A stretch of 64,000 nt of DNA from Denitratisoma sp. (GCA_032027165.1 JAVSMO010000001.1:189950-253949); one strand, 5' to 3'; positions 4,462 to 64,000 are shown, counted from the stretch's first letter. The notes: a model not told the origin generated them from the sequence alone. Translations and numbers: made by a program.

Positions 4462-4466
4462 GAGGA

Positions 4467-5291: not shown

Positions 5292-5311
5292 ATTGACGAG
5301 AAGGACGCAAC

Positions 5312-6070: not shown

Positions 6071-6183
6071 GTCCGGCGACACAATCTTGGATGCAGTATC
6101 CCGGCTGCATGCAGTTTTGAAACCGCCACCATGAGTTGGACGTCAGGCTTGCTTAATGCGGGACAGTTCGGGAGGGGGCGGTT

Positions 6184-8415: not shown

Positions 8416-8431
8416 CGTAAGAGATAAAGAA

Positions 8432-9199
8432 ATGAAGGTCAGAGTTCTCGGCTGCAGCGGCGGGATTGGCGGGCGCCATCTGCGCACTACTTCGCTGCTT
8501 GTCGACCACGACATCCTAATTGACGCAGGAACCGGTGTGGGTGATCTGTCGCTGGCCGAACTGGCTTTGATCGATCACGTTTTCCTCACCCATTCGCACC
8601 TCGACCATGTTGCCTGTTTGCCGTTCATGGTCGACACCGTGGGCGACATGCGCAACAAACCGCTGACGGTGCATGCCACCCAGGCCACGCTGGAAATCAT
8701 CCAGGCGCACATCTTCAACTGGGCCATCTGGCCTGACTTCTCGGAAATCCCCAACCGCGAGAAACCGTTCATGCGCTATGCTGAACTGAAGACCGGCAAG
8801 ACGGTGAAGGTGGAAGGGCGCGAGATCACCCCGCTTCCGGCCAATCACACCGTACCCGCGGTGGGCTATCGGATCGATTCCGGCGAGGGCAGTCTGGTGT
8901 TCAGCGGCGACACAACGGTGTGCGATGAGTTGTGGAAGGTCGTGAACAAGATCCGCAACCTGCGCTACCTCATCATCGAAACCGCCTTTTCCAACCGCGA
9001 GCGGCAACTTGCCGTCGCCTCGAAGCATCTATGCCCCGATATGCTTCGGGAGGAACTGCTGAAACTCCAGCGCGAGGCGGATATCTACATCACTCACCTC
9101 AAGCCCGGGCAGATCGAGCTGACCATGCAGGAAATCGAGGAGTTCATCGGAGAATACAGGCCGCGCATGTTGCAGAACAACCAGGTGTTTGAGCTGTAA
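8432..9199 (+). CDS. Class II 3',5'-cyclic-nucleotide phosphodiesterase (metallo-beta-lactamase fold)
   Basis: 255 aa starting MKVRVLGCSGG, with the THSHLDH metal motif. Layout resembles CpdP/yeast PDE1-type class II PDEs. No obvious signal peptide. Confidence 0.75.
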   Translation: MKVRVLGCSGGIGGRHLRTTSLLVDHDILIDAGTGVGDLSLAELALIDHVFLTHSHLDHVACLPFMVDTVGDMRNKPLTVHATQATLEIIQAHIFNWAIWPDFSEIPNREKPFMRYAELKTGKTVKVEGREITPLPANHTVPAVGYRIDSGEGSLVFSGDTTVCDELWKVVNKIRNLRYLIIETAFSNRERQLAVASKHLCPDMLREELLKLQREADIYITHLKPGQIELTMQEIEEFIGEYRPRMLQNNQVFEL

Positions 9200-9209
9200 G
9201 GGCTCGCGA

Positions 9210-10277
9210 ATGAGCATGCAATCCATTTCCACGGACGTATTGAGGCGGCTCGAGCCGCTGGGGGCGCTGTCGCCGGACAGCCTTCGCGAGATATCCCGCA
9301 TGTGCTATGCAGAAAAAATCAGCCGGAATCTCGACCCGTTCCGGCTGCAGGGCATGCAGGGGCAGGCTGTCTATCTCGTCAAGGGCGAATTGAAGATTGA
9401 TTATCCGGATTCAAGCTCCGAAATCCTGGTCGGCGGGACAGAGGCAGCCGTTCGTCCGCTGGACAAACGAAAACCCGCATTTACGGGCGCCAAGGCGATT
9501 ACGGACGTCGAGTTGATCCGAATCGACGAGGAACTGCTCGATATCATGCTGACGTGGGACCAGCTGGCCGCCCCGCAGGCCACAGCTGGCGCGAAGAAAA
9601 CCCCGGATGCGGCGGATCGTACGGATTGGCGCACGATGTCCGGCATGTTTGCGGCAGAGAACCTGACGCACGGCATATTTGCCAGTCTGCCGCCGGCCAA
9701 CATAGAGGCGCTGTTCGCACGTTTTCACCGCATCAAGGTGGCGCGCGGCGAAGTGGTCATCAGAGAAGGGGAGGATGGAGACTTCTATTACGTCATCGAA
9801 AGCGGGCGTTGCACGGTGTCCCGCCAGATTGGGGGCGCCACCGTCGGACTGGCCGAGTTGAAGACCGGCGATGCCTTCGGGGAGGAAGCCTTGGTGGCAA
9901 ACACCAAGCGAAATGCGACGGTTGCAATGAAAACCGATGGCGTTCTGTTGAGGCTGGCGAAGGCGGATTTCATCGAGTTGCTGAAAGAGCCCCTGATGCA
10001 TCGCATTTCGCGTCCGGAAGCGGACAAGAAAGCGGCTGCCGGAGCAATCTGGCTGGACGTCCGCTTTGCTGCCGAATACAACACCGACAAGCTGCCGGGG
10101 GCGATCAACATTCCGCTCAACGAGATACGCAACCTGTTCGGCTCTCTCGACCGCCAGAAGGAGTATATTGCCTACTGTCAGAGTGGGCGACGCAGTTCGG
10201 CGGCAGCATTTCTGCTCTCCCAGCGTGGCTATAAGACTTATCTGCTCGAAGGCGGTCTTCGCGGCAGTGCTGCATAA
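9210..10277 (+). CDS. Cyclic-nucleotide-binding (CAP effector-type) protein fused to a C-terminal rhodanese domain
   Basis: Canonical cNMP cassette GDAFGEEAL...KRNATV follows a degenerate first cNMP-like domain. The C-terminal rhodanese has the active-site loop YCQSGRRS. ATG 9210 lies in frame with the ORF-track TTG 9189. Confidence 0.85.
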   Translation: MSMQSISTDVLRRLEPLGALSPDSLREISRMCYAEKISRNLDPFRLQGMQGQAVYLVKGELKIDYPDSSSEILVGGTEAAVRPLDKRKPAFTGAKAITDVELIRIDEELLDIMLTWDQLAAPQATAGAKKTPDAADRTDWRTMSGMFAAENLTHGIFASLPPANIEALFARFHRIKVARGEVVIREGEDGDFYYVIESGRCTVSRQIGGATVGLAELKTGDAFGEEALVANTKRNATVAMKTDGVLLRLAKADFIELLKEPLMHRISRPEADKKAAAGAIWLDVRFAAEYNTDKLPGAINIPLNEIRNLFGSLDRQKEYIAYCQSGRRSSAAAFLLSQRGYKTYLLEGGLRGSAA

Positions 10278-10313
10278 GGCACGCATCCCAATGGCTCAGA
10301 AGGGAAATCTGGT

Positions 10314-12689
10314 ATGAGTGCGGTGCTTGGTTCGACTCAGGATTCTGGAGGCGGGGGCGATGTCGCCAGCCGCCTGTCTTTCTTCAAGAACCTCCAGACA
10401 GTCACCAACAAGATCCATGCGACGGCCAACATCGACGAGATCATGCTCGAGTTGTCGCAGGATATCTGTACGTTGTTCAACGCGGATCGGCTGACCATTT
10501 ACTCGATCAGCGAGGACAAGTCATCCATCGTCTCCAAGGTCAAGACCGGCCTCAATTCCTTCAAGGACCTGCGGCTGCCGATCGCCGACCAGAGCATCGC
10601 CGGCTTCGTTGCGCTGTCGAAAAAGCTGGCCAATATCAGCGACGTCTACGACGAGGCGGAACTGAAGTCGCACACACCCAGCCTGCGCTTCCTGCAGGAG
10701 GTGGATAAGCGTACCGGCTACCGCACCAAGCAGATGTTGGTGGCCCCGATTACCGACGCGCAAAGCGGTGAGTTGCTCGGGGTGGTCCAGCTCATCAACA
10801 ACAAGTCCGGAGCGCCTTTCTCCCAAGTGGCAGAGGAGGGAGTAAAAGGACTGTGCGAAACGCTGGCCATTGCATTCACCCAGCGCCAGAAGCCGGCGCA
10901 TGTCGTCAAATCGAAATATGACCATCTGGTCGCCGATGCCGTGCTTTCGGCTGCCGAGTTTGATCTTGCCACGCGTTCTGCGCGGCGCAAGGGCATGGAT
11001 ATCGAAGAGGTTTTGCAGCATGAATTCCAGGTCAAGCAGGCGGCGATCGGCTCCGCGCTGTCAAAGTTCTTCGGCGTGCCCTATGAACCCTTCAAGGGCG
11101 ATCGCATCAAGCCGATGGATCTGCTGAAAAACCTCAAGCGGGATTACGTCGAGGAAAACCAGTGGTTGCCGATCGAGGAAACGAAGGAAGGCGTCGTCAT
11201 CCTGACGATGGATCCCGAGCAGGTCAAAAGCTCACGCATCGTCAACAACGTCTTTCCGAAGAACAAGCTGGTCTTCCGCGTCACCACCATCCAGGAATTC
11301 AAGCAGACGCTCGACCAGTTCTATGGCGCCGCCGCCGATTATGGCTCGGTTGGCGATCTTCTTTCCGGCATGGACGAAGGGGAGGAGGGCGGTGGCGAGC
11401 TGACCGGAGAAGACCTTTCTGCGGCAGCGGACAACGAACTGGTCAAGCTCGTCAACAAGATCATCATCGATGCCTACAATCAGGGCGCATCGGATATTCA
11501 TATCGAGCCGCGGCCGGGCAAGGACAAGACCATCATCCGCTTCCGCAAGGACGGCTCGCTGGCGAACTACATCGAGATTCCGGCAAGCTACCGCAATGCC
11601 CTGGCAGCGCGCATCAAGATCATGTGCGATCTGGATATATCCGAGCGTCGCAAGCCCCAGGACGGCAAGATCAAGTTCAAGAAGTTCGGTCCGCTCGATA
11701 TCGAACTGCGCGTTGCGACGATTCCATCGGCCGGCGGCGTCGAGGATGTGGTCATGCGCATCCTCGCCGCCGGGGAACCGATCCCGCTCGAGAAGCTCGG
11801 CATCCTGCCACACAACCTGGAGCGGTTGAAGAGCGTAGTCGAGAAGCCCTATGGACTGTTCTTCGTCTGCGGTCCGACCGGTTCGGGAAAGACAACCACG
11901 CTGCATTCCGTTCTGAAACACCTGAATACGCCGGACACGAAGATATGGACGGCAGAAGACCCGGTCGAGATCACGCAGAAAGGGCTGCGGCAGGTCCAGA
12001 TCAACCGCAAGGCCGGACTGGATTTCGCCACCATCATGCGCGCCTTTCTGCGTGCCGACCCGGACATCATCATGGTTGGCGAGATGCGCGACAAGGAGAC
12101 CGTCTCCATCGGCATCGAGGCGTCGCTGACCGGCCACCTGGTGTTCGCCACGCTGCACACCAACAGCGCGCCCGAATCGATCACCCGCCTGCTCGACATG
12201 GGCATGGACCCCTTCAACTTTGCCGACGCCCTGCTCGGCATCCTGGCGCAGCGCCTGGGCAAGCGCTTGTGCGGAGAATGCAAGGAGGCCTACACCCCCT
12301 CAGGGGAGGAAATGAAGAGCCTGCTCACCGAGTACTGCGAGGAACTGCTCAACACCAGCACCTTCAAGAAGGATGCCAAGGCAGGCTACGAGACGGTGTA
12401 CAAGGAATGGGTGAAGAATTATGCCGACGACAAGGGACAGTTCAAGCTCTACAAACCGAAGGGCTGCGAAAAATGCAACAACACCGGCTACAAGGGGCGA
12501 GTCGGTTTGCACGAACTGATGGTGGGAACGGATAATGCCAAGAAGCTGATCCAGGAGCATGCTCGGGTTGCCGAGCTGGTCGCCTGCGCCCTGGAGGACG
12601 GCATGCGTACCCTGAAGCAGGATGGCATCGAGAAGGTGCTGCAGGGCATCACCGACATGAAGCAGGTTCGGGCGGTTTGCATCAAGTAA
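10314..12689 (+). CDS. GAF-domain-fused GspE/PilB-family secretion/pilus-assembly ATPase
   Basis: N-terminal GAF spans about aa 30-190, followed by a T2SSE_N-like domain. Walker A is GPTGSGKTTTL and Walker B region is IIMVGEMRD. Tetra-Cys motif CGEC...CEKC is typical of extension-type ATPases. Confidence 0.9.
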   Translation: MSAVLGSTQDSGGGGDVASRLSFFKNLQTVTNKIHATANIDEIMLELSQDICTLFNADRLTIYSISEDKSSIVSKVKTGLNSFKDLRLPIADQSIAGFVALSKKLANISDVYDEAELKSHTPSLRFLQEVDKRTGYRTKQMLVAPITDAQSGELLGVVQLINNKSGAPFSQVAEEGVKGLCETLAIAFTQRQKPAHVVKSKYDHLVADAVLSAAEFDLATRSARRKGMDIEEVLQHEFQVKQAAIGSALSKFFGVPYEPFKGDRIKPMDLLKNLKRDYVEENQWLPIEETKEGVVILTMDPEQVKSSRIVNNVFPKNKLVFRVTTIQEFKQTLDQFYGAAADYGSVGDLLSGMDEGEEGGGELTGEDLSAAADNELVKLVNKIIIDAYNQGASDIHIEPRPGKDKTIIRFRKDGSLANYIEIPASYRNALAARIKIMCDLDISERRKPQDGKIKFKKFGPLDIELRVATIPSAGGVEDVVMRILAAGEPIPLEKLGILPHNLERLKSVVEKPYGLFFVCGPTGSGKTTTLHSVLKHLNTPDTKIWTAEDPVEITQKGLRQVQINRKAGLDFATIMRAFLRADPDIIMVGEMRDKETVSIGIEASLTGHLVFATLHTNSAPESITRLLDMGMDPFNFADALLGILAQRLGKRLCGECKEAYTPSGEEMKSLLTEYCEELLNTSTFKKDAKAGYETVYKEWVKNYADDKGQFKLYKPKGCEKCNNTGYKGRVGLHELMVGTDNAKKLIQEHARVAELVACALEDGMRTLKQDGIEKVLQGITDMKQVRAVCIK

Positions 12690-14338
12690 GCGCCGTGGAC
12701 ACCATCGAGGACCTCTTTCGGCGGTTCGAGCAGCTCAACGAGATCGGCGCTGCCCTCTCCCACGAGCGGGATATCGGCAGGTTGCTCGAGAACATTCTGG
12801 TCGCTGCCAAAAACATCACCCACGCCGACGGCGGTACCCTCTACCGCATGACCGAGGGCGAGGCCAGCCTGCGTTTCGAGATCATGCGCAACGACAGCCT
12901 GAAGATCGCCCTGGGCGGCACCTCGGGCAACCCCATCCCCTTCCCGCCGTTGCCGTTGCGCACCGAGAGCGGCGAAGAGAACAACTCGATGGTGGCCGCC
13001 TACGCCGCCATCCACCAGAAGACCGTCAACATCGACGACGCCTACCAGGCGGAGGGCTTCGATTTCTCCGGCACGCGCAAATTCGACGAGCGCACCGGCT
13101 ACCGCTCGCAGTCGTTCCTGACGGTGCCGATGAAGAACCACGAGAACGCGGTGATCGGCGTGCTGCAACTGATCAACTCGATTGACCCGGACACGAAGCG
13201 GGTCGTGCCGTTCTCGGCCGCCGACCAGCAGCTGGCCGAATCGCTTGCCTCGCAGGCGGCCATTGCCCTGACCAACCGCCAGCTCATCACGCAGTTGGAG
13301 CAGCTGTTCGAATCCTTCATCCAGTTGATCAACGTGGCGATCGACGAGAAATCACCCTATACGGGCGGCCATTGCGAGCGCGTGCCGGTGCTCACCATGA
13401 TGCTGGCCGAAGCGGTGAACGAGACTAAAACCGGGCCGCTTGCCGACTTCGGCATGTCGGACAAGGACCGCTACGAACTGAAGATTGCCGGACTGCTGCA
13501 TGATTGCGGCAAGGTGACGACGCCGGTGCATGTGGTCGACAAGGCCACCAAGCTGCAGACGCTTTTCGATCGCATCCACCTGGTCGATACCCGCTTCGAG
13601 GTGCTCAAGCGCGATGCGCAGATCGCCATGCTCAAGGCCAAGCTGAACCTTCGCGATTCCCACGATTCGCGTGCGGAGGCCATGCTCGAAGAGGACCTCG
13701 TGCGCCATCTGCGCCAGATCGACGCCGACCGCGAGTTCCTGCGTCAGGCGAACATCGGCTCGGAGCTGATGACGCCGGAAGCCCAGGAGCGCGTGAAGAA
13801 GATCGGGACCGGCTACCGCTGGATGGACGTCGGTGGCAAATCCGCCAACTTCCTCACCGATGACGAACTGGAGAACCTCAACATTCGCGCCGGCACGCTG
13901 ACGCAGAAGGAACGCGAGACGATCAATTACCACATCGTCGCCACCAACAAGATGCTCGAGCAGTTGCCTTGGCCCAAGCACCTGAAAAACGTCCCGGAAT
14001 ACGCCGGCGGCCACCACGAACGCATGGACGGCAAAGGCTACCCGAAAGGGCTCACCCGCGAGCAGATGAGCGTGCAGGCCCGCGTCATGGGCATTGCCGA
14101 CATCTTCGAGGCCCTGACTGCCCGCGACCGGCCCTACAAGCGCGGCAAGACGCTATCCGAATCGCTGGAGATTCTCGGCAACTTCAAGCTCAACGGCCAC
14201 ATCGATCCGGATCTTTTCGATGTCTTCGTGCGGCAAAAGGTGTATCTGAAGTACGCTGAGCAATTCCTCGACCCGGAACAGATCGACGAAGTGGATGAAT
14301 CGAAAATTCCAGGCTACCAAGCACGGAATGCTGCTTAG
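12677..14338 (+). CDS. GAF-domain HD-GYP phosphohydrolase (predicted c-di-GMP phosphodiesterase)
   Basis: N-terminal GAF, then HD (LLHDCGK) and GGHHERMDGKGYPKGL (HHExxDGxGYP). The start is uncertain: TTG 12677 overlaps the upstream stop by 13 nt; GTG 12695 is the alternative. Confidence 0.88.
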   Translation: MHQVSAVDTIEDLFRRFEQLNEIGAALSHERDIGRLLENILVAAKNITHADGGTLYRMTEGEASLRFEIMRNDSLKIALGGTSGNPIPFPPLPLRTESGEENNSMVAAYAAIHQKTVNIDDAYQAEGFDFSGTRKFDERTGYRSQSFLTVPMKNHENAVIGVLQLINSIDPDTKRVVPFSAADQQLAESLASQAAIALTNRQLITQLEQLFESFIQLINVAIDEKSPYTGGHCERVPVLTMMLAEAVNETKTGPLADFGMSDKDRYELKIAGLLHDCGKVTTPVHVVDKATKLQTLFDRIHLVDTRFEVLKRDAQIAMLKAKLNLRDSHDSRAEAMLEEDLVRHLRQIDADREFLRQANIGSELMTPEAQERVKKIGTGYRWMDVGGKSANFLTDDELENLNIRAGTLTQKERETINYHIVATNKMLEQLPWPKHLKNVPEYAGGHHERMDGKGYPKGLTREQMSVQARVMGIADIFEALTARDRPYKRGKTLSESLEILGNFKLNGHIDPDLFDVFVRQKVYLKYAEQFLDPEQIDEVDESKIPGYQARNAA

Positions 14339-48751: not shown

Positions 48752-49960
48752 ATGGCACTGGTCAATCCGCACGGCGGGGGCGCGCTGAAGCCCCTGTTGC
48801 TGCAGGGCGAGGCGCACAAGGCCGAACTGGCGCGCGCCCAGACGCTGCCGAAAATCAAGGTCAGCTCTCGCGAGAAGGGCGACATCATCATGCTGGGCAT
48901 CGGCGGCTTCACGCCGCTCGACGGCTTCATGACCCACAGCGACTGGCAGGGCGTGTGCGACGGCATGAAGATGGCCAGCGGCCTGTTCTGGCCGATTCCC
49001 ATCACGCTGTCGACCGACAAGGCGACCGCCGATTCGCTGAAGACCGGCGGCGACGTCGCGCTGCTCGACCCGGACAGCGGCGAGATCCTCGCCACCATGA
49101 AGGTCACCGAGAAGTACGCCATCGACAAGGCGCACGAGTGCGCCATGGTCTTTAAGACCACCGACATGGAGCACCCCGGCGTCAAGATGGTGATGGAGCA
49201 GGGCGACGTGAACCTCGCCGGTCCCGTCAAGGTGCTCTCGCAGGCCGAGTTCCCCGCCAAGTACGGCGAGTTGTTCATGACCCCGGCGCAGACCCGGGCG
49301 CTCTTCGACTCCTACGGCTGGTCGAAGGTCGCCGCCTTCCAGACGCGCAACCCGATGCACCGCTCGCACGAGTACCTGGCCAAGGTGGCCATCGAGACCT
49401 GCGACGGCGTGCTGATCCATTCGCTGCTCGGCAACCTCAAGCCCGGCGACATTCCCGCCGACGTGCGCGCCGAGGCCATTGCCACGCTGACCGACAAGTA
49501 CTTCGTCAAGAAGACCGTGGTGCAGGCCGGCTACCCGCTCGACATGCGCTACGCCGGCCCGCGCGAAGCGCTGCTGCACGCGCTGTTCCGCCAGAACTAC
49601 GGCTGCTCGCACCTGATCGTCGGCCGCGACCATGCCGGCGTCGGCAGCTACTACGGCCCCTTCGACGCCCACCACATCTTCGACGAGATCCCGAAGGGCG
49701 CGCTGGAGACCCAGCCGCTGAAGATCGACTGGACGTTCTGGTGCTACAAGTGCGGCGGCATGGCCTCCGCCCGCACCTGCCCGCACGGCGATGAGGATCG
49801 CCTGCTGCTGTCGGGCACCAAGCTGCGCAAGATGCTTTCGGAAGGCGGCGACGTGCCGCCGGAGTTCTCCCGTCCCGAAGTGCTGGAGATCCTGCGCGCG
49901 TACTACGCGGGACTGACCGAAAAAGTTGAAATCAAGCTCGCCGGCCATTCGGCGCGCTGA
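48752..49960 (+). CDS. sat: Sulfate adenylyltransferase (dissimilatory-type ATP sulfurylase)
   Basis: [13 protein letters not shown] and GRDHAGVG motifs. GGAGGAG RBS. Confidence 0.93.
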
Positions 49961-50013: not shown

Positions 50014-50490
50014 ATGCCAACCTTTGTTCGTACCGAGAAATGCGATGGCTGCAAGGGCCAGGACAAGACCGCCTGCATGTACATCTGCCCGCACAACCTG
50101 ATGAAGCTGGACAAGGACGGTTCCGACACCGGCCATGCCATGAAGGCCTACAACCAGGAGCCGGAGCAGTGCTGGGAGTGCTACTCCTGCGTGAAGATCT
50201 GCCCGCAGAACGCCATCGAGGCGCGCCACTACGCCGACATCGTGCCGCTGGGCGGCTCGGTGCAGCCCCTGCGCGGTTCCGACTCCATCATGTGGACCAT
50301 CAAGTTCCGCAACGGCACCATCAAGCGCTTCAAGTTCCCGATCCGCACCACCGCCGAAGGCTCGATCGACCCGTACGGCGGCAAGCCGATGCCGAAGATG
50401 GCCGACCTCGACAAGCCGGGCGTCTTCACCAAGGACGTCATGGGCGGCTACCGCGGCGGCAAGGCCGACGAACTGATCCGCGTGAAGTAA
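50014..50490 (+). CDS. aprB: Adenylylsulfate reductase beta subunit
   Basis: MPTFVRTEKCDGCKG..CMYICP and CWECYSCVKICP ferredoxin motifs, plus the AprB-specific C-terminal tail. Confidence 0.93.
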   Translation: MPTFVRTEKCDGCKGQDKTACMYICPHNLMKLDKDGSDTGHAMKAYNQEPEQCWECYSCVKICPQNAIEARHYADIVPLGGSVQPLRGSDSIMWTIKFRNGTIKRFKFPIRTTAEGSIDPYGGKPMPKMADLDKPGVFTKDVMGGYRGGKADELIRVK

Positions 50491-50527
50491 GCGGCGAACC
50501 GACAACTTTCGAAATAAGGTGACTGCA

Positions 50528-52552
50528 ATGTCTGGAACTTTTGACAAACCCGAGATCGTCCAGGAAGAAGTGGACATCCTTCTCATCGGCGGCGGCATGG
50601 CCTGCTGCGGCGCCGGCTACGAGATCATGCGCTGGGCCGAGGCCGTCAAGGCCGAGACCGGCAAGGAACTGAAGATCAAGCTGGTCGACAAGGCCGCCAT
50701 GGACCGCTCCGGCGCCGTGGCCCAGGGCCTGTCCGCCATCAACACCTACATCGGCCCCGAGCAGGACCCGGCCGACTACGCCCGCATGGTCTCCAACGAC
50801 CTGATGGGCATCACCCGCGACGACCTGGCCTACGACCTCGGCCGCAACGTCGACGACTCCGTGCACCTCTTCGAGGAATGGGGCCTGCCGATCTGGAAGA
50901 CCGACGCCGACGGCGTGCGCCACGACGGCGCCGAGTCGCAGCGCGAAGGCCTGCCCGCCCTGAAGGACGGCGGCAAGCCGGTGCGTTCGGGCAAGTGGCA
51001 GATCATGATCAACGGCGAATCCTACAAGTGGATCGTCGCCGAAGCCGCCAAGAAGGCCCTCGGCCTCGACCGCATCCAGGAGCGCGTCTTCATCGTCAAG
51101 CTGGTGAACGACAAGAACGACCCGTCGCGCGTCGCCGGCGCGGTCGGCTTCTCGGTGCGCGAGAACAAGATCTACGTGTACAAGGCCAAGGCCATCCTGC
51201 TGGCCGCCGGCGGCTGCGTGAACCTGTTCCGTCCGCGTTCGGTGGGCGAGGGCACGGGCCGCGCCTGGTACCCGGTGTGGAACGCCGGCTCGACCTACGC
51301 CATGGCTGCCGAAGCCGGTGCCGAGCTGACGATGATGGAAAACCGCTTCGTGCCGGCCCGCTTCAAGGACGGCTACGGCCCGGTCGGCGCCTGGTTCCTG
51401 CTCTTCAAGGCCAAGGCGACCAACGCCTACGGCGAAGACTACATGGTCAAGAACAAGGAGATGCTGAACGACTACCCGCCCTACGGTCAGGCCGCCGTTC
51501 CCGCCTCCTGCCTGCGCAACCACCTCATGCTGAAAGAGATGAAGGAAGGCCGCGGCCCGATCTACATGGACACCGTCACCGCGCTGGCCAAGCTGCGCGA
51601 GACCCTGACGCCGAAGGAAGTGAAGCACCTCGAAGCGGAAGCCTGGGAAGACTTCCTCGACATGTGCATCGGCCAGTGCGGCATCTGGGTCGGCGAGAAC
51701 ATCGAGCCCGAGAAGACCATGTCCGAGCTGATGCCGACCGAGCCCTACCTGCTCGGCTCGCACTCCGGCTGCTGCGGCATCTGGGTGTCCGGCCCGACCG
51801 ACGTTGGCGCGCCGACCACCGAGGAACTGCCGGGCGTGCCCGAGCACCTGCCGAAGGGCTGGAACTGGGGCTACCGCTCGATGACCACGGTCAAGGGCCT
51901 GTTCACCGCCGGCGACGGCGTCGGCGCCTCGGGCCACAAGTTCTCCTCCGGTTCGCACACCGAAGGCCGCCTCGCCTCCAAGGCCATGGTCAAGTACGCC
52001 CTCGACAACAAGGACTGGAAGGTCGAGCTGGACACCGATCCCGCCGTCCTCGCCGAGGAGATCTACAAGCCGGTGCGCAACTTCCTCGAGCACAAGGACT
52101 ACAGCACCGCCATCGACGTGAACCCGATGTACATCACGCCGAAGATGCTGCAGTTCCGCCTGCAGAAGATCATGGACGAGTATGTCGCCGGTGTCGCCAC
52201 CTACTACAACACCAACGACAAGATGCTGGCCGTGGCCGAAGGCAAGCTGGAGATGCTCAAGGAAGACGCCCAGAAGATGCGCGCCAAGGACCTGCACGAG
52301 CTGCTGCGGGCCTGGGAGAACTACCACCGCATCCTGACCGCCGAAGCGCACATGAAGCACATCCAGTTCCGCGAGGAGAGCCGCTACCCCGGCTTCTACT
52401 ACCGCACCGACAAGAACTTCGTCGATGAGCAGAACTGGCACTGCTTCGTGAACTCCGTCTATGACAAGAACACCAAGAAGTGGACCTGCTTCAAGCGCAA
52501 GCACGTCGACCTGGTGGACAAGTCGAAGCTGTTCAAGGCGGCCGCGCACTAA
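50528..52552 (+). CDS. aprA: Adenylylsulfate reductase alpha subunit
   Basis: FAD motif DILLIGGGMACCGA. Length and context match AprA. ATG 50528 is preceded by AAGGTG. Confidence 0.93.
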   Translation: MSGTFDKPEIVQEEVDILLIGGGMACCGAGYEIMRWAEAVKAETGKELKIKLVDKAAMDRSGAVAQGLSAINTYIGPEQDPADYARMVSNDLMGITRDDLAYDLGRNVDDSVHLFEEWGLPIWKTDADGVRHDGAESQREGLPALKDGGKPVRSGKWQIMINGESYKWIVAEAAKKALGLDRIQERVFIVKLVNDKNDPSRVAGAVGFSVRENKIYVYKAKAILLAAGGCVNLFRPRSVGEGTGRAWYPVWNAGSTYAMAAEAGAELTMMENRFVPARFKDGYGPVGAWFLLFKAKATNAYGEDYMVKNKEMLNDYPPYGQAAVPASCLRNHLMLKEMKEGRGPIYMDTVTALAKLRETLTPKEVKHLEAEAWEDFLDMCIGQCGIWVGENIEPEKTMSELMPTEPYLLGSHSGCCGIWVSGPTDVGAPTTEELPGVPEHLPKGWNWGYRSMTTVKGLFTAGDGVGASGHKFSSGSHTEGRLASKAMVKYALDNKDWKVELDTDPAVLAEEIYKPVRNFLEHKDYSTAIDVNPMYITPKMLQFRLQKIMDEYVAGVATYYNTNDKMLAVAEGKLEMLKEDAQKMRAKDLHELLRAWENYHRILTAEAHMKHIQFREESRYPGFYYRTDKNFVDEQNWHCFVNSVYDKNTKKWTCFKRKHVDLVDKSKLFKAAAH

Positions 52553-52577
52553 GCCGTCCGCAGGTTGTCGGAAATGC

Positions 52578-52610
52578 AACCGGGCGCCGCAAGGCGCCCG
52601 GTTTGCTTTC
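52578..52610 (+). terminator. Rho-independent terminator after aprA
   Basis: AACCGGGCGCC-GCAA-GGCGCCCGGTT, then TGCTTTCC. Confidence 0.7.
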
Positions 52611-52704
52611 CAGCCCCGCATTCCCCCTGCTGTCGTGCGGGTTGGTGAATCGCAAGGTCCCGGACTATGATTCGGGAAATCAAGCCAGTGAAAGAGCAAG
52701 AGAC

Positions 52705-53625
52705 ATGAGCATGGACACCTACATGGCGAAGGACCTGCCCTTCCCCGAGAGCCCGGTCGTGCCGGAGATGGTGGATGGCGGCAAGACCATCCAGTTCCAG
52801 TGCCGCAAGGGCATCGCCTGCTGGAATGCCTGCTGCAGCAACATCGACATCTCGCTGACGCCCTACGACATCCTGCGCCTGAAGCGGCGGCTGGGACTCG
52901 CCTCGGCGCAGTTCCTGCAGCAGTACGCCGTGCCCTACGAGCTGGAGAAGGACGGCATCGCCGGCATCAAGCTGAAGCCGGTCAGCGGCGGCAGCGCCTG
53001 CCAGTTCATGACGCCGGAGGGCTGCAGCGTCTACGAGGATCGCCCGACCGCCTGCCGCTACTACCCGGTGGCGCTGCTGTCCATGCGCAAGCAGGACGAA
53101 TACACCGACACGCATTCCTACGCCCTGGTGAAGGAGGCGCATTGCCTCGGCCACAACGAGCCGCGCAGCCTCACCATCGACGAATACCGCGCCGAGCAGG
53201 GCCTGCCGGAATACGACGAGCAGGGCCGCGGCTGGCGCCAGCTGGTGCTGAAGAAGATGTCCTCGGGCCCGACGGTGGGCAAGCCCTCGGTGAAGAGCCG
53301 CCAGCTGTTCTTCATGACCTGCTACGACATCGACACCTTCCGCGCCTTCGTCGATTCCGGCCCCTTCAACGACCTCTACGACGTGCCGCCGGCCGAGCGC
53401 CAGGCCATGCTGGGCGACACGCTGGAGGCCGAGCAGCGGCTTCTGCAGTTCGGCTACCGCTTCCTGCGCCAGGTGCTGTTCGGCGAGGATTCGATCAGCC
53501 TGCACAAGGAGGCGGCGGAGAAGCGTCGCGAGCAGGCGCGGGCGAAGGCGCAGCAGGCCGAGCGCGAGGCCGCCGAGAAGCTGGCGCGCGAAGAGGATCC
53601 CCGCGACGAGGGGTTCGACGATTGA
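52705..53625 (+). CDS. YkgJ/UPF0153-family Cys-cluster (Zn/Fe-chelating) protein with charged coiled C-terminal tail
   Basis: [13 protein letters not shown] (CxxCC-type) and [23 protein letters not shown]. The C-terminus is [29 protein letters not shown] 52705 is chosen. Confidence 0.75.
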
Positions 53626-54446
53626 GCGAGGCGCTCGGTACCCGCGGCATCGCTCCCACCCTGGCGCGGATCGAGACCGAGCCGTACTACCAGGCCATCC
53701 ATGACGAGGTGGCCCTCTTCGAATCCGCCCATCGCCGCCGCCTGCCGGTGCTGCTGAAGGGGCCGACCGGCTGCGGCAAGACGCGTTTCGTCGAATACAT
53801 GGCCTGGAGGCTGAAGAGGCCGCTGGTCACCGTGGCCTGCCACGACGACCTCACCACCGCCGACCTCGTCGGCCGCTACCTCATCGTCGGCAACGAGACG
53901 GTGTGGGTGGACGGCCCGCTGGCCGCCGCGGTGCGCGCCGGCGCCATCTGCTATCTCGACGAGATTGTCGAGGCGCGCAAGGACACCACGGTTGTGATCC
54001 ATCCGCTGGCCGACAACCGCCGCCTGCTGGCCATCGACAAGCGCGGCGAACTGCTCGCCGCGCCGGACGACTTCATGCTGGTGATCTCCTACAACCCCGG
54101 CTACCAGAGCGTGCTGAAGGAGATCAAGCCGTCCACGCGCCAGCGCTTTGTCGCGCTGGAATTCGACTACCCCGAGGCCGCCGTCGAGGCCGGCATCGTC
54201 GCCACCGAAGGCGGCGTCGACGCCGGGACGGCCCGCCGCCTGGTCAAGCTGGCCGAACTGACGCGCAACCTGAAGGGCGCCGGTCTCGACGAGGGCGCCA
54301 GCACGCGCCTGCTGGTGCACGCCGCCCAGCTCATCGCCGACGGCGTCGAACCGGCGGCGGCCTGCACCGCGGCGGTCGCGCGGGCGCTGAGCGACGATCC
54401 CGAGATGACGGGGACGCTGGATGACCTCGTCCACGCCGTCTTCTAG
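53622..54446 (+). CDS. MoxR-class AAA+ ATPase of the CbbQ/NorQ/NirQ type
   Basis: Walker A GPTGCGKT, Walker [11 protein letters not shown], about 274 aa. The TTG start overlaps the upstream stop (TTGA). Confidence 0.88.
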
Positions 54447-56514
54447 AAAGCTTTTCTCCGACGAACTCGAGCAGCGCCTCGACGAGCTGCTCTTCGCCTC
54501 CACCTCGCACCGTTCGGCGAAGGGCATTGCCGACGGCCTCGAGCGACTCAAGCGCGAAGAACAGGAGCGCGTGCTGCACTGGGTCGGCGTCGCCGCCCAG
54601 TCGTATGCCGAGATCGGCTATCAGGTCGCCGCGCTGGCGCCGCACGCGCTCGAACGGCTGGATGCCGCGGGCTTCGAGGCCTGGGTGCTGGCCGGTCTGG
54701 ACGCCTACGACCGCCAGGGCGGTCAGGCGGCGATGGCCTTGCTGCGCGACCTCGACGGTTTTTGCGCGCTGCGCGAGAACGCGCCCGCAGCGGCGTCTCT
54801 CGCCGATATCGAGACGCGCCTGGGGCGCTTCCTGCAGGGCCTGGCCGGCCGGCCGCTGGCACTCGCGGCGGGAGCGGTCGCCCACACCGACACCGAGACC
54901 GTCTTCCTGCCGGCGCAACTGGCGTCGCTGCCGACGCAGGATGGCAACCGCCGCCTCTACAAGGCGACGGCGGCGCTGCTGTGGGCGCAGACGCGCCATG
55001 GCACCTTCGGCACGGCGGCGGTGGACATCGAGGCGGCGTTCGCGCGCTGGCCCGAGCGCGAGCGGGCGCTGCGCTGGTTCGCCGCGCTGGAGGCGGTGCG
55101 CCTCGAGGCGGTGCTGGGTGAGGAACTGCCCGGCCTCGCCGCCGAGATCGCCGCGCTGCGCGGGCCCTGGCCGGAGGAATTGCGCGCGGCCGTCGAACGG
55201 CTCGGCCGCCCCGATGCCGCCGTGTCGCAGACACTGACTTTTCTCGACGAATGCATGGCCGGCGAGGCGGAGCCGCCCTCGCTGCCGCATGCCGGCGCGA
55301 TCGACCTCGCGGCCGCGCTGCGCGTGCGCGCGGCGCGCATCGCGCGCGAGGCCGAGGTCGTGCGCAAGGCGCTGTCCACCCTGAAAGGCTTCGGCGGCCG
55401 CCAGGGCGCCGGCAAGCAGGCGCCGACGGTGAATCTCGAAGGCGGCAAGCTCGAATTCCGCCTCGACGGCGAAGCCATCGCGCTGCCGCCCGAGGCGCAG
55501 GCGGCAGCGCAGTCGCTGCTGCAGGACCTGGACGAACTGCCGCCGGAATGCCTGGTGCCGGCCGGCCCCGGCGCCTGGCAGCCGACCGAACGTGAAGAGT
55601 GCGAGAGCGGCGGCGAGGATGCCCTCACCAGCCACCGCGAGCCCCACCGTCGCTACGACGAGTGGGACTATCGCCGCCGCGCCTACCGCCGCGGCTGGTG
55701 CCATCTTTTCGAGATCGACCTGGCACCGGGCGATCCGGACTACGTGGCAAAAGTCAGTCTGCGCAATGCGGCGCCGATCCGCCAGATCCGCCGGCGCTTC
55801 GAGCTGCTGCGCGGCGAGGACCGCCTGCTCGGCCGCCAGCCCGAAGGCGAGGAGATCGATGTCGACGCCCTGGTCGAGGCGGCCGGCGACCGCGCCGCCG
55901 GCACCGAGCCGGAAGCGCGGCTGTACAGCCGCCGCATCCGCAACGAGCGTTCGCTGGCGGCGATGTTCATGGTGGACATGAGCGGCTCGACCAAGGGCTG
56001 GGTGAACGACGCCGAGCGTGAGTCGCTGGTGATGCTGTGCGAGGCGCTGGAGACGCTCGGCGACGCCTACGCCATCTACGGCTTTTCCGGCTGGACGCGC
56101 ACGCGCTGCGACATCTATCCGGTGAAGCGCTTCGACGAAGCCTACGACGCGGCGGTGCGCGCACGCATCGCCGCCATCGAGGCGAAGGACTACACGCGCA
56201 TGGGCGTGGCCATCCGCCATCTCACGCAATTGCTGGAAGCGCAGCCGGCGCGGCACAAGCTGCTGGTGACGCTCTCCGACGGCCGGCCGGACGACTTCGG
56301 CGACGAGTACCGCGGCCACTACGGCATCGAGGACACGCGTCGCGCGCTGCAGGAGGCGCACGAGCGCGGCGTGCGCAGCTACTGCGTCACCATCGACCGC
56401 CACGGCGCCGACTACCTGCCGCGCCTCTACGGCCCGGCGCGCTACACGGTGCTCGACGACGCGAAGAAACTGCCGCTGAAGGTGGCCGACATCTACCGCA
56501 GGCTGACCACCTGA
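54421..56514 (+). CDS. VWA-domain partner protein of the CbbO/NorD type
   Basis: 697 aa. C-terminal VWA with MIDAS VDMSGST and LSDGRPDD. Overlaps the AAA+ gene by 26 nt. Confidence 0.8.
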
Positions 56515-60516: not shown

Positions 60517-61566
60517 ATGGCAGATCGGAAAACACCGGGCAAGACCCTGTTGATGGTGGCTGTGGCCGTTCTGCTGGCGGCCGGCGGCTGGTTTGCCTGG
60601 CAATACTTCAACGAGCCGCCCCCGCCACCACCTCCGCCGCCCAAGGCTGCCAAGTCGGCTGCAGCGCCTGCCGCGCCCAACCAGGACAAGACGATCGAGG
60701 AGATCCTGCGGGTGACGGGCATGGACCATATGCTGAACCAGTTGCCGGAGCAGATGCTGGCCGGCATGCGCCAGGCTGGCAAGCAGGACAAGAGCGGCAA
60801 GCTCTCGCCGGGCGACCTGGCCGAACTGGAGCGGCTGACGCGGGAAGCCTTCCCCGCGCAGGGCTTCCGGCAGCGCGTGACGGCCGCCCTGAAGAAGGGG
60901 TTCGAGGCGCAGCGTTTCCGGGAATTCCTCGCCGACAGTTCCATGCCGCTGGCAAAGCGCATGACTGAGCTGGAGAAGCTGCAGCCGAAGCAGGAGGAAC
61001 TCGCGGCGTTCATGGCCGGACTGAAGGCGAAGCCGCTGGCGCCGATGCGGGTGAAGCTGGTCGAGCGCATCGACATGGCCGGCCGTGCCAGCGAACTGGC
61101 CACCGAGTCCATGTTCGCCACCGTGAGGGGCATGGCGCGCGGTTTTTCCGGCGCCGATGCGAAGCAGGCCGCCGATGTCGACAAGGCGATCGAGCAGCAG
61201 CGCGCGGCCGCGGCAGACAATATCCGCAACGCCGTGCGTTTTTCCCTGGCCTACGCCTATCGCGACGTGAGCGATACCGATCTGGCCGAATACGCCCGCC
61301 TGCACGAGAAGCCCAGCACCCAGTTCGTGCTGGGGCTGATGTTCGATGCCCTGGTCGAGGAAATCCGCAGCGGCTCGGAGCGCCTCGGTGCCGGCCTCGA
61401 AAAGCTGCTCACGGCCAAGCGCGCCGGGAAGCCTGCGTCGGCGGCCGACGCCGGGTCCGCGGCGGCCTCGCGGCCGATGCGTTCCCGGGCCGGGGAAGAT
61501 GCGCGCGAGTGCCTGCGCTTCGAGGCCAACCGGCAGGTGATGGGCTGCGCGGAACGGTACCGATAA
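60517..61566 (+). CDS. Hypothetical membrane-anchored protein with poly-proline linker
   Basis: N-terminal TM helix LLMVAVAVLLAAGGWFAW, then EPPPPPPPPPK, then a helical domain of about 280 aa. No confident family assignment. Confidence 0.5.
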   Translation: MADRKTPGKTLLMVAVAVLLAAGGWFAWQYFNEPPPPPPPPPKAAKSAAAPAAPNQDKTIEEILRVTGMDHMLNQLPEQMLAGMRQAGKQDKSGKLSPGDLAELERLTREAFPAQGFRQRVTAALKKGFEAQRFREFLADSSMPLAKRMTELEKLQPKQEELAAFMAGLKAKPLAPMRVKLVERIDMAGRASELATESMFATVRGMARGFSGADAKQAADVDKAIEQQRAAAADNIRNAVRFSLAYAYRDVSDTDLAEYARLHEKPSTQFVLGLMFDALVEEIRSGSERLGAGLEKLLTAKRAGKPASAADAGSAAASRPMRSRAGEDARECLRFEANRQVMGCAERYR

Positions 61567-61622: not shown

Positions 61623-62519
61623 CTACTTCTTCGCGATCTCTTCCAGCTTCGTCGCCTTGATCAGCTGGCCGTCGAGGCCGGCTTCCTTGGCGCTGCCGCC
61701 GTAGGCGACGGTCATCAGCTGGGAGTAGTAGAGCACCGGCATGCTGAACTTCGTGCCCTGCTTCTTGTTGATCTCGCTCTGGTAGATCTCGACATTGGCC
61801 TGGCACAGCGGGCAGGGCGTGACGATCATCTCGGCGCCGTGGTCGTAGGCCGACTCGACGATGTCGCGGATCTGCTTTTGCGACTTCTCCGGCTCGGAGA
61901 AGGCGAGCGCGCCGCCGCAGCAGGTGACCTTCTGGTCGTAGGGCACGGCCTCGCCGCCGACGGTCTCGACCAGCTTGTCGAGGTACACCGGGTTCTCGAA
62001 GGATTCGCCGGCGATGCCGAAGGGGCGGTTGGTCTGGCAGCCGACGTAGCCGGCGAACTTGATGCCTTCCAGCGGCTTCACCACCGGCTGCTTGAGGGCG
62101 TCGTAGCCGAGGTCCTCGATCAGCACCTCGACCATGTGGCGTATCGGCGTCGTGCCCTGGTACTGCAGGCCGGCGGCGGCCAGCGCCTCGTTGGTTTCCT
62201 TGAGCAGGACTTCGCTGTGGTCGAGGCGTTCCTTCACCTCGCGCTGGGCGAGCCAGCAGGCGGCGCAGGTGGCGACCATCTCCTTGCCCGGCATGTGCGT
62301 TTCGGCCAGGGCGAAGTTGCGCGCCGACAGCGCCAGGCGCGGCAGTTCGCCGCCCTCGGCGTAGCCGATCGAGGCGCCGCAGCAGTTCCAGTCGGGGATT
62401 TCGGTGATCTTGACGTCGAGCTTGTCGCACATGGCGTTCACCGACGTCAGGTAATTCGAGGCCGAGGCCTTCGACTGCGAGGAGCAGCCGGGGTAGAACG
62501 CGTATTCTTTCTTTGCCAT
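61623..62519 (-). CDS. hdrB: Heterodisulfide-reductase subunit B-like protein (two CCG domains)
   Basis: YPGCS...DWNCCGAS and CPLCQ..., VTCCGG. Confidence 0.88.
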   Translation of the reverse strand: MAKKEYAFYPGCSSQSKASASNYLTSVNAMCDKLDVKITEIPDWNCCGASIGYAEGGELPRLALSARNFALAETHMPGKEMVATCAACWLAQREVKERLDHSEVLLKETNEALAAAGLQYQGTTPIRHMVEVLIEDLGYDALKQPVVKPLEGIKFAGYVGCQTNRPFGIAGESFENPVYLDKLVETVGGEAVPYDQKVTCCGGALAFSEPEKSQKQIRDIVESAYDHGAEMIVTPCPLCQANVEIYQSEINKKQGTKFSMPVLYYSQLMTVAYGGSAKEAGLDGQLIKATKLEEIAKK

Positions 62520-62538: not shown

Positions 62539-63168
62539 CTACTTGGCGAAGCCCTTCTTGCGGTCTTCGATCTGGCGCGCCTTCTCGATCATGGCCTTGA
62601 AGCCGGCCTGGTCCTTGACGCCGTGGCCGCCGAGGATCTCCATCGGGTTGAGGCGCTTGGCCTTGACCAGGCCGAGGCCGACCGCCTGCATGTTGAGGGC
62701 ATTCTTGATGCCCTGCACGAAGCCGTCCTTGAAGTAGAGGGCCAGCGAGAAGGTCAGCTCGTTCACGCGGCCCTTCTTGATCAGGTTGTTCCAGAACAGC
62801 GTCGCCGTCTCGCGCGTCGGCTGGCCCTTCGGCGCGATGCCGAGGCGGTGGGCGTAGTTGGCCAGGCCGTGCATGATGTGGGTGATCGGCAGCTTGCGCG
62901 GGCAGCGCACGATGCAGTTGTAGCAGGAGGTGCACATCCACATCGAGTCGGAGGAGAGCACTTCCTCGCGCTTGCCGGCGCGGATCATCATGAAGATTTC
63001 CTGCGGCGGATGCGCCCAGGCGTTTCCGAGCGGGCAGGAGCCGGCGCAGACGCCGCATTGCATGCACATGCGCACCCAGTGGCCTTCCTCGACGTTGGCC
63101 TCGACTTCCTTGAGGAAGCTGTTCTTGTATTTCGCGATGGCGGTTTGGTTCGCGGTGGTCATTATCAT
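62539..63168 (-). CDS. hdrC: Heterodisulfide-reductase subunit C-like 2x[4Fe-4S] protein, apparently soluble
   Basis: CMQCGVCAGSCP and CTSCYNCIVRCP. No convincing TM helices in its 209 aa. Confidence 0.85.
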   Translation of the reverse strand: MIMTTANQTAIAKYKNSFLKEVEANVEEGHWVRMCMQCGVCAGSCPLGNAWAHPPQEIFMMIRAGKREEVLSSDSMWMCTSCYNCIVRCPRKLPITHIMHGLANYAHRLGIAPKGQPTRETATLFWNNLIKKGRVNELTFSLALYFKDGFVQGIKNALNMQAVGLGLVKAKRLNPMEILGGHGVKDQAGFKAMIEKARQIEDRKKGFAK

Positions 63169-63175
63169 GCGCTCC

Positions 63176-64000
63176 TCAGCCGAAGCCCTTCATCGGTGAC
63201 AAACCAATCTCTTTGATTTGATCGACGTACTCGTTGATCAGCTTCACCACGCGGGCATTGTCGGTGATCGCCACCTCCAGCGTCTGCACGCGCTCGGTCT
63301 CGAGGCCGAGCTGCTTCAGCGTGTCGTCGATCTTGCTCATCCGGTAGTAGGCCATCTCCGAGCCCTTGACGAAGTGGCACTGGTAGTCGTCGCCCTTCTT
63401 GCAGCCCATCATCATCACGCCGTCGTAGCCGGAGTTGAGCGCGTCGGTGATCCAGATGGTGTTCACCGAGCCGAGGCAGCGCACCGGGATCGCCCGCACG
63501 AAGGCCGAATAGGTCAGGCGCTGGATGCCGGCCATGTCGAGGGCCGGGTAGGCGTCGTTCTCGCAGGCGAGGATCAGGATGCGCGGCTTCTCCTCGAACT
63601 CGTCGGGGATGTTAACCGCCTTGATCTGCATGCCGACGGTGTCGCAGGAGTAGTTTTCGAAGGAGATGACGCGCACCGGGCAGGCGCCCATGCAGGTGCC
63701 GCAGCGGCGGCAGCGCTCCTCGTTGAACTTCGGGAAGCGCTTCTCGTCCTCGTCGATGGCGCCGAAGGGGCATTCCACCGTGCAACGCTTGCACTGGGTG
63801 CAGCCCTCGAGGCGCGCGATCGGGTAGGACAGGTCCCAGGCGCGCGGATGGGCGGCGCGGCCGCGGGCGGCGTTCTCGACGGCCTGGATCGCCTTCAGCG
63901 CGGCGCCGGTGGCGTCCTCGGTGGCCTGCAGCATGTCCATCGGACGGCGCGTCGGGCCGGCGGCATAGACGCCGGTGCGGCGGGTTTCATACGGGAAGCA
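63176..64000 (-). CDS. qmoB: QmoB/HdrA-like flavoprotein, C-terminal part (ferredoxin plus MvhD-like domain); 5' end beyond window
   Basis: The frame stays open to the window edge (..YETRRTGVYAAGPTRRPMDML..). Contains CTQCKRCTVECP, CRRCGTCMGACP and the MvhD-like ILILACENDAY...VRCLG...MMMGCKKGDDYQCHF. Confidence 0.8.
   Translation of the reverse strand, partial: CFPYETRRTGVYAAGPTRRPMDMLQATEDATGAALKAIQAVENAARGRAAHPRAWDLSYPIARLEGCTQCKRCTVECPFGAIDEDEKRFPKFNEERCRRCGTCMGACPVRVISFENYSCDTVGMQIKAVNIPDEFEEKPRILILACENDAYPALDMAGIQRLTYSAFVRAIPVRCLGSVNTIWITDALNSGYDGVMMMGCKKGDDYQCHFVKGSEMAYYRMSKIDDTLKQLGLETERVQTLEVAITDNARVVKLINEYVDQIKEIGLSPMKGFG

Follow-up and report, generated by a model that had tools for sequence, protein, structure and literature searches.

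We analysed a 64,000-nt stretch of DNA from Denitratisoma sp. (GCA_032027165.1, JAVSMO010000001.1:189950-253949), hereafter the window, in which three genes lie downstream of aprBA, the genes of adenosine 5'-phosphosulfate (APS) reductase. They encode a cysteine-cluster protein of the YkgJ type, a MoxR-class ATPase of the AAA+ superfamily (ATPases associated with a variety of cellular activities), called Q here, and a protein with a von Willebrand factor A (VWA) domain, called D. When the open reading frames (ORFs) were derived anew, the overlapping junctions reported in a preliminary description of this DNA were recovered: TTGA at 53622-53625 between ykgJ and Q, and 26 nt at 54421-54446 between Q and D. 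A public contig identical to the window (GCA_029980345.1) carries gene calls that likewise give proteins of 306, 274, and 697 aa with overlaps of 4 and 26 nt. No alternative ATG, GTG, or TTG start for Q was found between the upstream stop codon and its conserved N-terminus “EPYY.” The three genes and their motifs are as follows.

52705-53625, plus strand: ykgJ; ATG start, 306 aa, TGA at 53623-53625; PF03692
53622-54446, plus strand: Q, MoxR-class AAA+ ATPase of the CbbQ/NorQ type; TTG start at 53622-53624, 274 aa, TAG at 54444-54446
53760-53783, plus strand: Walker A motif (P-loop) GPTGCGKT of Q, residues 47-54; aligned with the CbbQ and NorQ structures
53949-53966, plus strand: Walker B region CYLDEI of Q, residues 110-115; aligned with the CbbQ and NorQ structures
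54421-56514, plus strand: D; ATG start, 697 aa, overlapping Q by 26 nt; VWA Pfam match
54886-54912, plus strand: motif TDTETVFLP in the N-terminal domain of D; kept across the D family and faintly common to NorD and CbbO
55975-55992, plus strand: MIDAS (adhesion site dependent on metal ions) motif DxSxS (DMSGST) of D, residues 519-524
56188-56205, plus strand: segment of D with the further MIDAS residue T592
56272-56295, plus strand: segment of D with the further MIDAS residue D620

The protein Q matched the Pfam families AAA_5 (PF07728; 121.8 bits) and, next, CbbQ_C (PF08406; 104.7 bits), and both Walker motifs were intact, which agrees with its earlier assignment to the MoxR class. Among solved structures, it aligned over its full length with CbbQ (6l1q and 5c3c; 354 and 351 bits) and NorQ (9qh4 and 9qhd; 324 and 322 bits). 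In most related loci, the gene was located beside D, and Q therefore shows the trait of its subfamily of pairing with a VWA partner.

The partner D is composed of a helical, family-specific N-terminal domain (residues ~1-400), a linker, and a C-terminal VWA/MIDAS domain (residues ~410-697). According to the definition of the MIDAS motif as DxSxS...T...D (PMC13036017), the set in D is complete, and D519, S521, S523, T592, and D620 were invariant in alignments A1 and A4; the 697-aa partner with a C-terminal MIDAS VWA domain proposed earlier was thereby confirmed. The NorD structures matched residues 404-696 only, and BLAST aligned only the C-terminal ~290 residues, with 38-41% identity to NorD, 33% to CbbO (residues 408-692), and 29% to the D protein of an amidase-linked Q/D pair. 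The NorD proteins, unlike the window D and NorD, aligned with each other end to end over 560-640 aa. Profile comparison with hhalign also matched the wider D family to NorD in the C-terminal part only, and gave a remote alignment (24% identity, 578 columns) with a profile built from two sequences, CbbO and the amidase-linked D. In a Foldseek search with the model of D, the predicted structure of which is only moderately confident, the best match was the VWA domain of NorD (9qh6_G; E = 1e-14), followed by the MIDAS domain of Midasin; the deposited NorQD models omit NorD's N-terminal domain (PMC13036017). Within the N-terminal domain of D, residues T156, D157, L163, and P164 of the motif TDTETVFLP were invariant in A1, and the motif was present in the consensus of A4, matched NorD residues 79-121 weakly, and was aligned with CbbO by hhalign.

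When the N-terminal 400 residues of D were used as a query against all representative proteins, 428 relatives were obtained; about 50 of them were full-length (670-740 aa) and, at 33-47% identity, could be aligned with the window D from end to end. These ~50 proteins aligned with NorD, CbbO, and the amidase-linked D in the VWA part only. A profile of the full-length relatives retrieved 1170 more proteins; their few named sources include metagenome-assembled genomes (MAGs) labelled Thioploca, Beggiatoa, and Gammaproteobacteria, and the D-family proteins among them are usually annotated automatically as “NorD.” Judged from these alignments, the N-terminal domain of D defines a broad separate family.

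A subsequent phylogenetic analysis was based on labelled references from annotated plasmids, namely one cbbL-cbbS-cbbQ-cbbO cluster (L096), four norCB-norQD clusters (L011-L013 and L094), and one amidase-Q-D cluster (L095), with CbbQ and NorQ sequences also taken from the solved structures. The plasmid searches for CbbO references gave mostly norQD, and L096 was the sole cbbLS-cbbQO cluster recovered. On the neighbour-joining trees, the Q proteins adjoining the D family formed one clade, with 95% bootstrap support on the first tree and 100% on the second, where it comprised all 33 sampled. The clade was separate from NorQ (100%) and from the group of CbbQ and the amidase-linked Q (100%), to which it was sister. 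The CbbQ clade itself, with three CbbQ references, had 88% support, and the window Q was positioned outside it. A phylogeny against CbbQ and NorQ had been proposed as a check, and the pair was nested in neither. Given the separate Q clade, and given that the similarity of D to NorD, CbbO, and the amidase-linked D lies mainly in the VWA domain, the Q-D pair appears to represent a distinct lineage of the superfamily and not a displaced CbbQO or NorQD. Q and D co-evolve as a clade of their own.

The amidase-linked pair (aliphatic amidase-Q-D of the AmiB type, L095:5929-9579, plasmid pBN4 of Paraburkholderia aromaticivorans) is located next to an enzyme that is neither Rubisco nor nitric oxide reductase (NOR). 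Thus, the Q/D family has diversified onto new enzymes. This pair differs from that of the window in grouping with CbbQ and CbbO (100% bootstrap for Q; alignment of its D with CbbO over 550 aa), and its D resembles the window D in the VWA domain only.

The trio is flanked by genes of sulfur oxidation on both sides, as the preliminary description stated: sat-aprB-aprA are located directly upstream, and hdrB, hdrC, and qmoB downstream on the opposite strand, after genes for a PAS/HWE histidine kinase, for ThrH, and for a protein without known family.

48752-49960, plus strand: sat (ATP sulfurylase), 402-aa ORF; first gene of the sulfite-to-sulfate module
50014-50490, plus strand: aprB (Fe-S subunit of APS reductase), ORF; the ATG chosen gives 158 aa, matching relatives
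50519-52552, plus strand: aprA (flavoprotein subunit of APS reductase), 677-aa ORF
52570-52611, plus strand: GC-rich hairpin with a U-rich tail 3' of aprA; RNA fold of -38.2 kcal/mol, z = -4.4 against shuffles
61623-62519, minus strand: gene for the hdrB-like CCG-domain subunit of QmoAB-HdrCB; CCG Pfam match and match to CoB-CoM heterodisulfide reductase B
62539-63168, minus strand: gene for the hdrC-like 4Fe-4S subunit; domain and family matches
63176-64000, minus strand: 3' part of qmoB with FlpD and ferredoxin (Fer4) domains; the gene extends beyond the end of the window

In related loci, the homologues of sat carry the PUA_2 and ATP-sulfurylase Pfam domains, AprB is 86-99% identical and has the Fer4 and APS-reductase_C domains, and the AprA homologues, with FAD_binding_2, are 87-100% identical in Rhodocyclaceae loci and 90-91% identical in Gallionella-type loci. 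The complete QmoB (747-754 aa), followed by QmoA, is encoded in loci L008 and L009. The initial claim of a terminator between aprA and the trio was retained in part: the hairpin with its U-rich tail is strong, and was seen by RNA folding though missed by a simple terminator scan, but it is likely to be a terminator, an attenuator, or an mRNA-stabilising element. As also noted at the outset, neither Rubisco nor NOR was encoded among the main ORFs scanned across the 64-kb window; the rest of these ORFs encode signalling proteins, polysaccharide-synthesis enzymes, and Sox proteins.

The gene neighbourhoods of the family were compared in two sets. The D profile, run against one genome per species, recovered 80 relatives of full length that were 56-90% identical; almost all belong to Rhodocyclaceae, Sterolibacteriaceae, and Sulfuritalea-type genomes, with a few MAGs labelled Thiohalomonadaceae or Gammaproteobacteria. 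A scan of metagenomes gave 80 loci in which D was only 40-50% identical to that of the window. The sampling of all loci was driven by similarity to D or YkgJ, and the apr and qmo genes were scored within each locus.

Within 10 kb, ykgJ was present in 30 and aprA in 29 of the 47 genome loci with a complete upstream flank. The ykgJ and Q genes were adjacent in 23 genome loci; in 22, unrelated genes, mostly on the opposite strand, lay between them over 1-8 kb. Where both flanks were complete (34 loci), qmoAB-hdrCB was located 3' of D in 14, none of them lacking apr (14 vs 0), while hdrB was kept downstream of D in 19 of the 46 genome loci with a full downstream flank. When the count was limited to loci of 12 kb or more, 39/58 genome loci and 19/35 metagenome loci, 58/93 when combined, had apr, ykgJ, or qmo/hdr genes. 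By our estimate, a gene placed at random in a 3-4 Mb genome would have a chance of ~1-2% of falling within 10 kb of apr or qmo.

The metagenome loci were more varied in organization. The first four contexts examined in the wider family were uninformative. Among the others, the window order sat-aprB-aprA-ykgJ-Q-D was found in L172, L178, and L180, and a more divergent aprBA-ykgJ-Q-D in L145 (AprA 71% and YkgJ ~50% identical); the ykgJ-Q-D part of this arrangement was visible in L161 and L131. In L152, L154, L160, and L167, another lineage of Apr (AprA 44% identical) follows an AprM-like gene encoding 4-5 transmembrane segments and is divergent from Q-D, with or without a gene for a Metallophos_2 (PF12850) phosphoesterase before Q. 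In the commonest layout, Q directly adjoins a divergent qmoA-qmoB-hdrC-hdrB; qmoA was the immediate upstream neighbour in 18 loci, across an intergenic region of mostly 150-370 bp.

Several further features of these loci were recorded. In the clade in which Q is divergent from qmoA, D reaches ~1010 aa and has an extra N-terminal domain resembling class-I S-adenosylmethionine-dependent methyltransferases (weak PF10672 and Methyltransf_25 matches; L134:9089-12130 and ~15 metagenome loci, among them L107, L129, L130, L135-137, L140, L146, L149, L156, and L166; P0433, P0448, and P0484). A class II ribonucleotide reductase (RNR) gene and a separate TSCPD-domain gene are located directly 3' of D in 17 metagenome loci (L147:6715-8838, L135:14686-15387), which is probably lineage synteny. 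The Metallophos_2 gene is directly 5' of Q in the AprM-type loci (L160:8433-8960, L152), is present in L162, and lies beside qmoA in Rhodocyclaceae loci (L008:20913-21437, L009:17441-17956); perhaps it is one more gene conserved as part of the apr/qmo/Q-D neighbourhood.

The remaining protein, YkgJ, matched the CxxCxxCC domain PF03692 at residues 33-129 (41.8 bits; gathering cutoff 23). It has nine cysteines (C33, C39, C43, C44, C99, C107, C117, C147, and C206), all invariant in alignments A2 and A3, and a charged helical tail (residues 263-306); both the YkgJ/UPF0153 assignment and the long tail had been recognized from the start. The divergent homologue in L145 was also above the PF03692 cutoff. 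An N-terminal CxxCxxCC-type cluster is common to the window protein, Escherichia coli YkgJ, and FliB; unlike the latter two, the window YkgJ is a very highly conserved 300-aa form (mean column identity of 66-75%) with nine invariant cysteines, an extra helical domain, the charged tail, and a fixed position after aprA. A sequence search of the PDB gave no solved-structure match for YkgJ, and no NCBIfam model matched. The AlphaFold model (mean predicted local distance difference test score of 60) was disordered around the cysteine regions, and a Foldseek search of the PDB with this low-confidence model gave nothing meaningful. The PF03692 protein FliB, a flagellin methylase, is reported to bind a [4Fe-4S] cluster (PMC8598068). 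By this analogy, YkgJ is probably an Fe-S protein that would serve AprBA as an accessory subunit, an electron relay, or a cluster donor.

In total, 5513 YkgJ homologues were found, and those with ~70% identity were from Gallionella, Sideroxyarcus, Casimicrobiaceae, and Nitrosomonadales. In the two of these contexts that were examined (L001, and L002 from Gallionella), ykgJ is directly 3' of sat-aprB-aprA, with no Q/D nearby. Among all loci gathered in the analysis, some of them without Q/D, ykgJ followed the window-type aprA on the same strand within 69-352 bp in 53/53 cases with a visible downstream region. Because it follows this aprA in all of them, also where Q/D is absent, YkgJ is a separate partner of this AprBA type, and a tighter one than Q/D; in this lineage, it would simply have come to be co-translated with Q-D. 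Hence, the YkgJ-Q-D trio of the preliminary description stands as a recurrent layout but not as an obligate unit, since YkgJ occurs without Q/D, and Q/D without YkgJ in the AprM-type and qmo-linked loci.

Taken on its sequence, the Q-D pair is an intact AAA+ motor with an intact MIDAS-VWA adaptor of the finger-in-pore class. The link to apr and qmo recurs in clades that diverge deeply, involves two Apr lineages and several gene arrangements, and is seen at 58/93 loci where ~1-2% would be expected, which argues for functional coupling. On balance, we favour the interpretation that Q-D is a MoxR-type AAA+/VWA remodeller, a previously unrecognised sister lineage of CbbQO tied to the APS reductase-Qmo system of sulfur-oxidising Beta- and Gammaproteobacteria. 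The YkgJ/Qmo-type and AprM-type loci share no component but AprBA, which would thus be the most parsimonious client of the pair. However, QmoAB-HdrCB or an Apr-Qmo complex is also in play as a possible client, because qmoA dominates as the neighbour of Q.

How such a pair might act is suggested by analogy with the systems described in PMC9976466 and PMC13036017. A hexamer of Q would grip the VWA finger of D in its pore, while the family-specific N-terminal domain and the MIDAS site of D would dock on the client. ATP hydrolysis by Q would then twist the client open, so that a cofactor (FAD or an Fe-S cluster) could be inserted or a trapped or inhibited state released. AprA and FrdA are members of one flavoprotein superfamily. 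In the cofactor-insertion version, the pair would be comparable to NorQD, which inserts iron, or to RavA-ViaA acting on an FrdA-like flavoprotein; the latter system of E. coli is a MoxR AAA+ protein with a VWA partner for flavoprotein/Fe-S enzymes such as fumarate reductase and NADH dehydrogenase (PMC10585395, PMC3893208), but belongs to another MoxR subfamily, has another partner architecture, and is likened here by function only. In the release version, the parallel would be CbbQO and Rubisco, and the trapped state of the flavoenzyme might be a dead-end FAD or nucleotide adduct. More tentatively, and at somewhat less than an even chance, we suggest that Q-D is an “APS reductase activase/maturase” working on AprBA, alone or together with QmoAB-HdrCB or AprM, with YkgJ as an unrecognised third, Fe-S-bearing component. 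In the library searched, no paper was found to describe a Q/D pair associated with apr or qmo, as had been supposed, or an apr-linked YkgJ.

A number of observations weigh against such a link. The Q-D pair was present without apr or ykgJ in 17/47 genome loci with a full upstream flank, and neither apr nor qmo was found in 11/34 loci with both flanks complete, most of which had the order M48 peptidase-Q-D amid housekeeping genes; the M48 peptidase-Q-D loci include the clade that branches first on the NorD-rooted neighbour-joining tree of D. Even in Rhodocyclaceae-type loci with both genes, ykgJ and Q were parted by unrelated opposite-strand genes in 22 of 45. Gallionella-type loci have a 90%-identical AprA and YkgJ with no Q/D nearby; therefore, Apr is not generally dependent on Q/D. 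One metagenome clade is located amid housekeeping genes (phosphofructokinase, methylthioadenosine phosphorylase, and class II RNR), and D occurs alone, without Q, in Thioploca and others. Altogether, about a third of the loci had no sulfur gene nearby; the co-occurrence of the trio with sulfur genes, raised as a question at the outset, was thus confirmed for the majority of loci but not for this third. In addition, labelled CbbQ/CbbO references were few on the neighbour-joining trees (three CbbQ and one CbbO, L096).

One rival explanation is inherited synteny or hitch-hiking, in which the client of Q-D is unrelated to sulfur, e.g., a respiratory or housekeeping complex encoded elsewhere, and apr and qmo were inserted or lost alongside. 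The M48 peptidase-Q-D arrangement without apr or qmo was present in ~14 species-level genomes, including the first-branching clade, with Sua5, PurEK, FolD, CtaA, and CcoG as neighbours, and some of these cases are nested among apr-linked Sterolibacterium. In L024 (7717-12079), the order is M48 peptidase-sat-Q-D, and aprB, aprA, and ykgJ are gone from between sat and Q, which looks like a clean deletion sparing an intact Q/D. The housekeeping-context clade and the loci with D alone point in the same direction. From the genome set, with its 17/47 apr-less loci and first-branching apr-less clade, an orphan Q/D at a conserved site with apr inserted by chance was the favoured explanation. It was dropped as such and kept as a rival once the 40-50%-identical D family showed apr and qmo neighbours in other architectures. 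A single ancestral juxtaposition is insufficient because the apr/qmo link recurs, at that level of D identity, in at least four architectures with two Apr lineages, and the divergent region of 150-370 bp between Q and qmoA in 18 loci also argues against it. We consider inherited synteny unlikely, though it is the strongest of the alternatives.

Another explanation is that YkgJ itself is the client, with Q-D loading or extracting its metal or Fe-S cluster and YkgJ then acting on Apr. This would suit the translational coupling of ykgJ-Q-D in the window, L009, and L022, and the position of ykgJ immediately 5' of Q in 23 genome and 6 metagenome loci from three deep clades. An Fe-S protein gene is likewise placed between norQ and norD in the nor cluster of a Sphaerotilus sulfidivorans plasmid (L094:6980-10728), where it encodes a 309-aa 4Fe-4S protein (Fer4_5). 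However, the AprM-type and qmo-linked loci have Q-D but no YkgJ, Gallionella-type loci have YkgJ but no Q-D, and toxin-antitoxin modules or several kilobases of opposite-strand genes often part the two, so that we regard this explanation as improbable. In close relatives of the window, such modules interrupt the gene string: PhdYeFM with or without PIN is found between ykgJ and Q, and NTP_transf_2/HepT between Q and D (L004:10968-11228, L005:10968-11635, L006:16829-17475; also L015, L017, L018, and L022), and the ykgJ/Q/D string appears to be an insertion hot spot.

The pair might also be a displaced Rubisco activase, i.e., a CbbQO variant found near sulfur genes merely through a common chemolithoautotrophic lifestyle. 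The pair shares several features with CbbQO (6l1q, 5c3c; PMC4660213): both consist of a ~270-aa single-module MoxR AAA+ protein (AAA_5 and CbbQ_C) and a ~700-aa partner with a C-terminal MIDAS VWA domain, encoded by adjacent, overlapping genes. The Q clade is sister to CbbQ with the amidase-linked Q, the CbbQ structures give Q slightly higher scores than do those of NorQ, and the remote hhalign alignment (24% identity) covers most of the length and reaches the N-terminal domains of both CbbO and the amidase-linked D. The same cluster is present in the complete genome of “Ca. Desulfobacillus denitrificans” (L022; D 84% identical), which has Rubisco elsewhere, ~170 genes away from aprAB and sat (DSYM_23230-50), and is reported to lack norBC (PMC8402940). 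Nevertheless, Q is only 59-64% identical to CbbQ and lies outside its clade, BLAST aligns D with CbbO in the VWA domain only, and client specificity has been attributed to the N-terminal domains (PMC9976466). Genes for Rubisco and norB were absent from all of the 156 related D-family loci, at many of which the pair instead neighbours apr, ykgJ, or qmo, whereas in L096, which served as a positive control, cbbL-cbbS-cbbQ-cbbO are contiguous. There is little probability, in our assessment, that Q-D is a Rubisco activase.

Finally, the pair could be NorQD proper, the chaperone that inserts FeB into cNOR, with its client encoded elsewhere. The automatic label “nitric oxide reductase activation protein NorD” of its homologues implies this, and many carriers of the D family are presumably denitrifiers. 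NorQD (9qh4-9qhg; PMC9976466, PMC13036017) has the same two-protein architecture, with the P-loop GPTGCGKT and the MIDAS DxSxS-T-D intact in both, and its VWA domain is the nearest to that of D by sequence and fold, but Q falls outside the well-supported NorQ clade, D shows no alignment to NorD over its N-terminal ~400 aa save for a faint “DxExxxLP” motif whereas NorD proteins align with each other at full length, and norB is missing from the 156 loci and norBC reportedly from the “Ca. D. denitrificans” genome, so that cNOR is not the client in that organism and this explanation is very improbable.

Other observations concern the surroundings of the trio. The 3' end of D (plus strand) overlaps by 22 nt (56493-56514) the gene of the 1060-aa PAS/HWE histidine kinase (minus strand), and a convergent PAS/HWE kinase gene is also 3' of D in L008, L014, L021-L023, and L025. 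A gene of ~205 aa with a CBS domain is located directly 3' of D on the opposite strand in L064 (6827-7444) and 19 other genome loci, between D and hdrB where qmo is present. The ORF at 60517-61566 in the window (349 aa) has an N-terminal hydrophobic stretch and a poly-proline run, no Pfam match, and homologues only in L017 and L025. Far upstream of the trio (1777-14338), a cluster of signalling genes encodes a CHASE2 Ser/Thr kinase, a PP2C phosphatase, a CHASE2 adenylate/guanylate cyclase, a GAF-MshEN-T2SSE ATPase, and a GAF-HD protein.

In the global sulfur cycle, dissimilatory APS reductase holds a central place, its genes serve as a standard marker, and to our knowledge its accessory factors have been regarded as limited to Qmo or AprM. 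The Q/D family itself is already known; what is new here is a lineage of Q/D remodellers with a new presumptive client. If the proposed role is correct, the parts list of the pathway is incomplete, with two new parts beyond Sat, AprBA, and Qmo/AprM, and these extra parts could explain the difficulty of expressing Apr in other hosts. A further Q/D client besides Rubisco and cNOR, as the amidase had already hinted, would provide a natural experiment on the specificity of the N-terminal domain of the VWA partner. Thousands of public proteins from sulfur oxidisers bear the label “NorD” or “nitric oxide reductase activation protein,” in many cases probably wrongly, and this apparent mis-annotation can skew the denitrification potential predicted from metagenomes.

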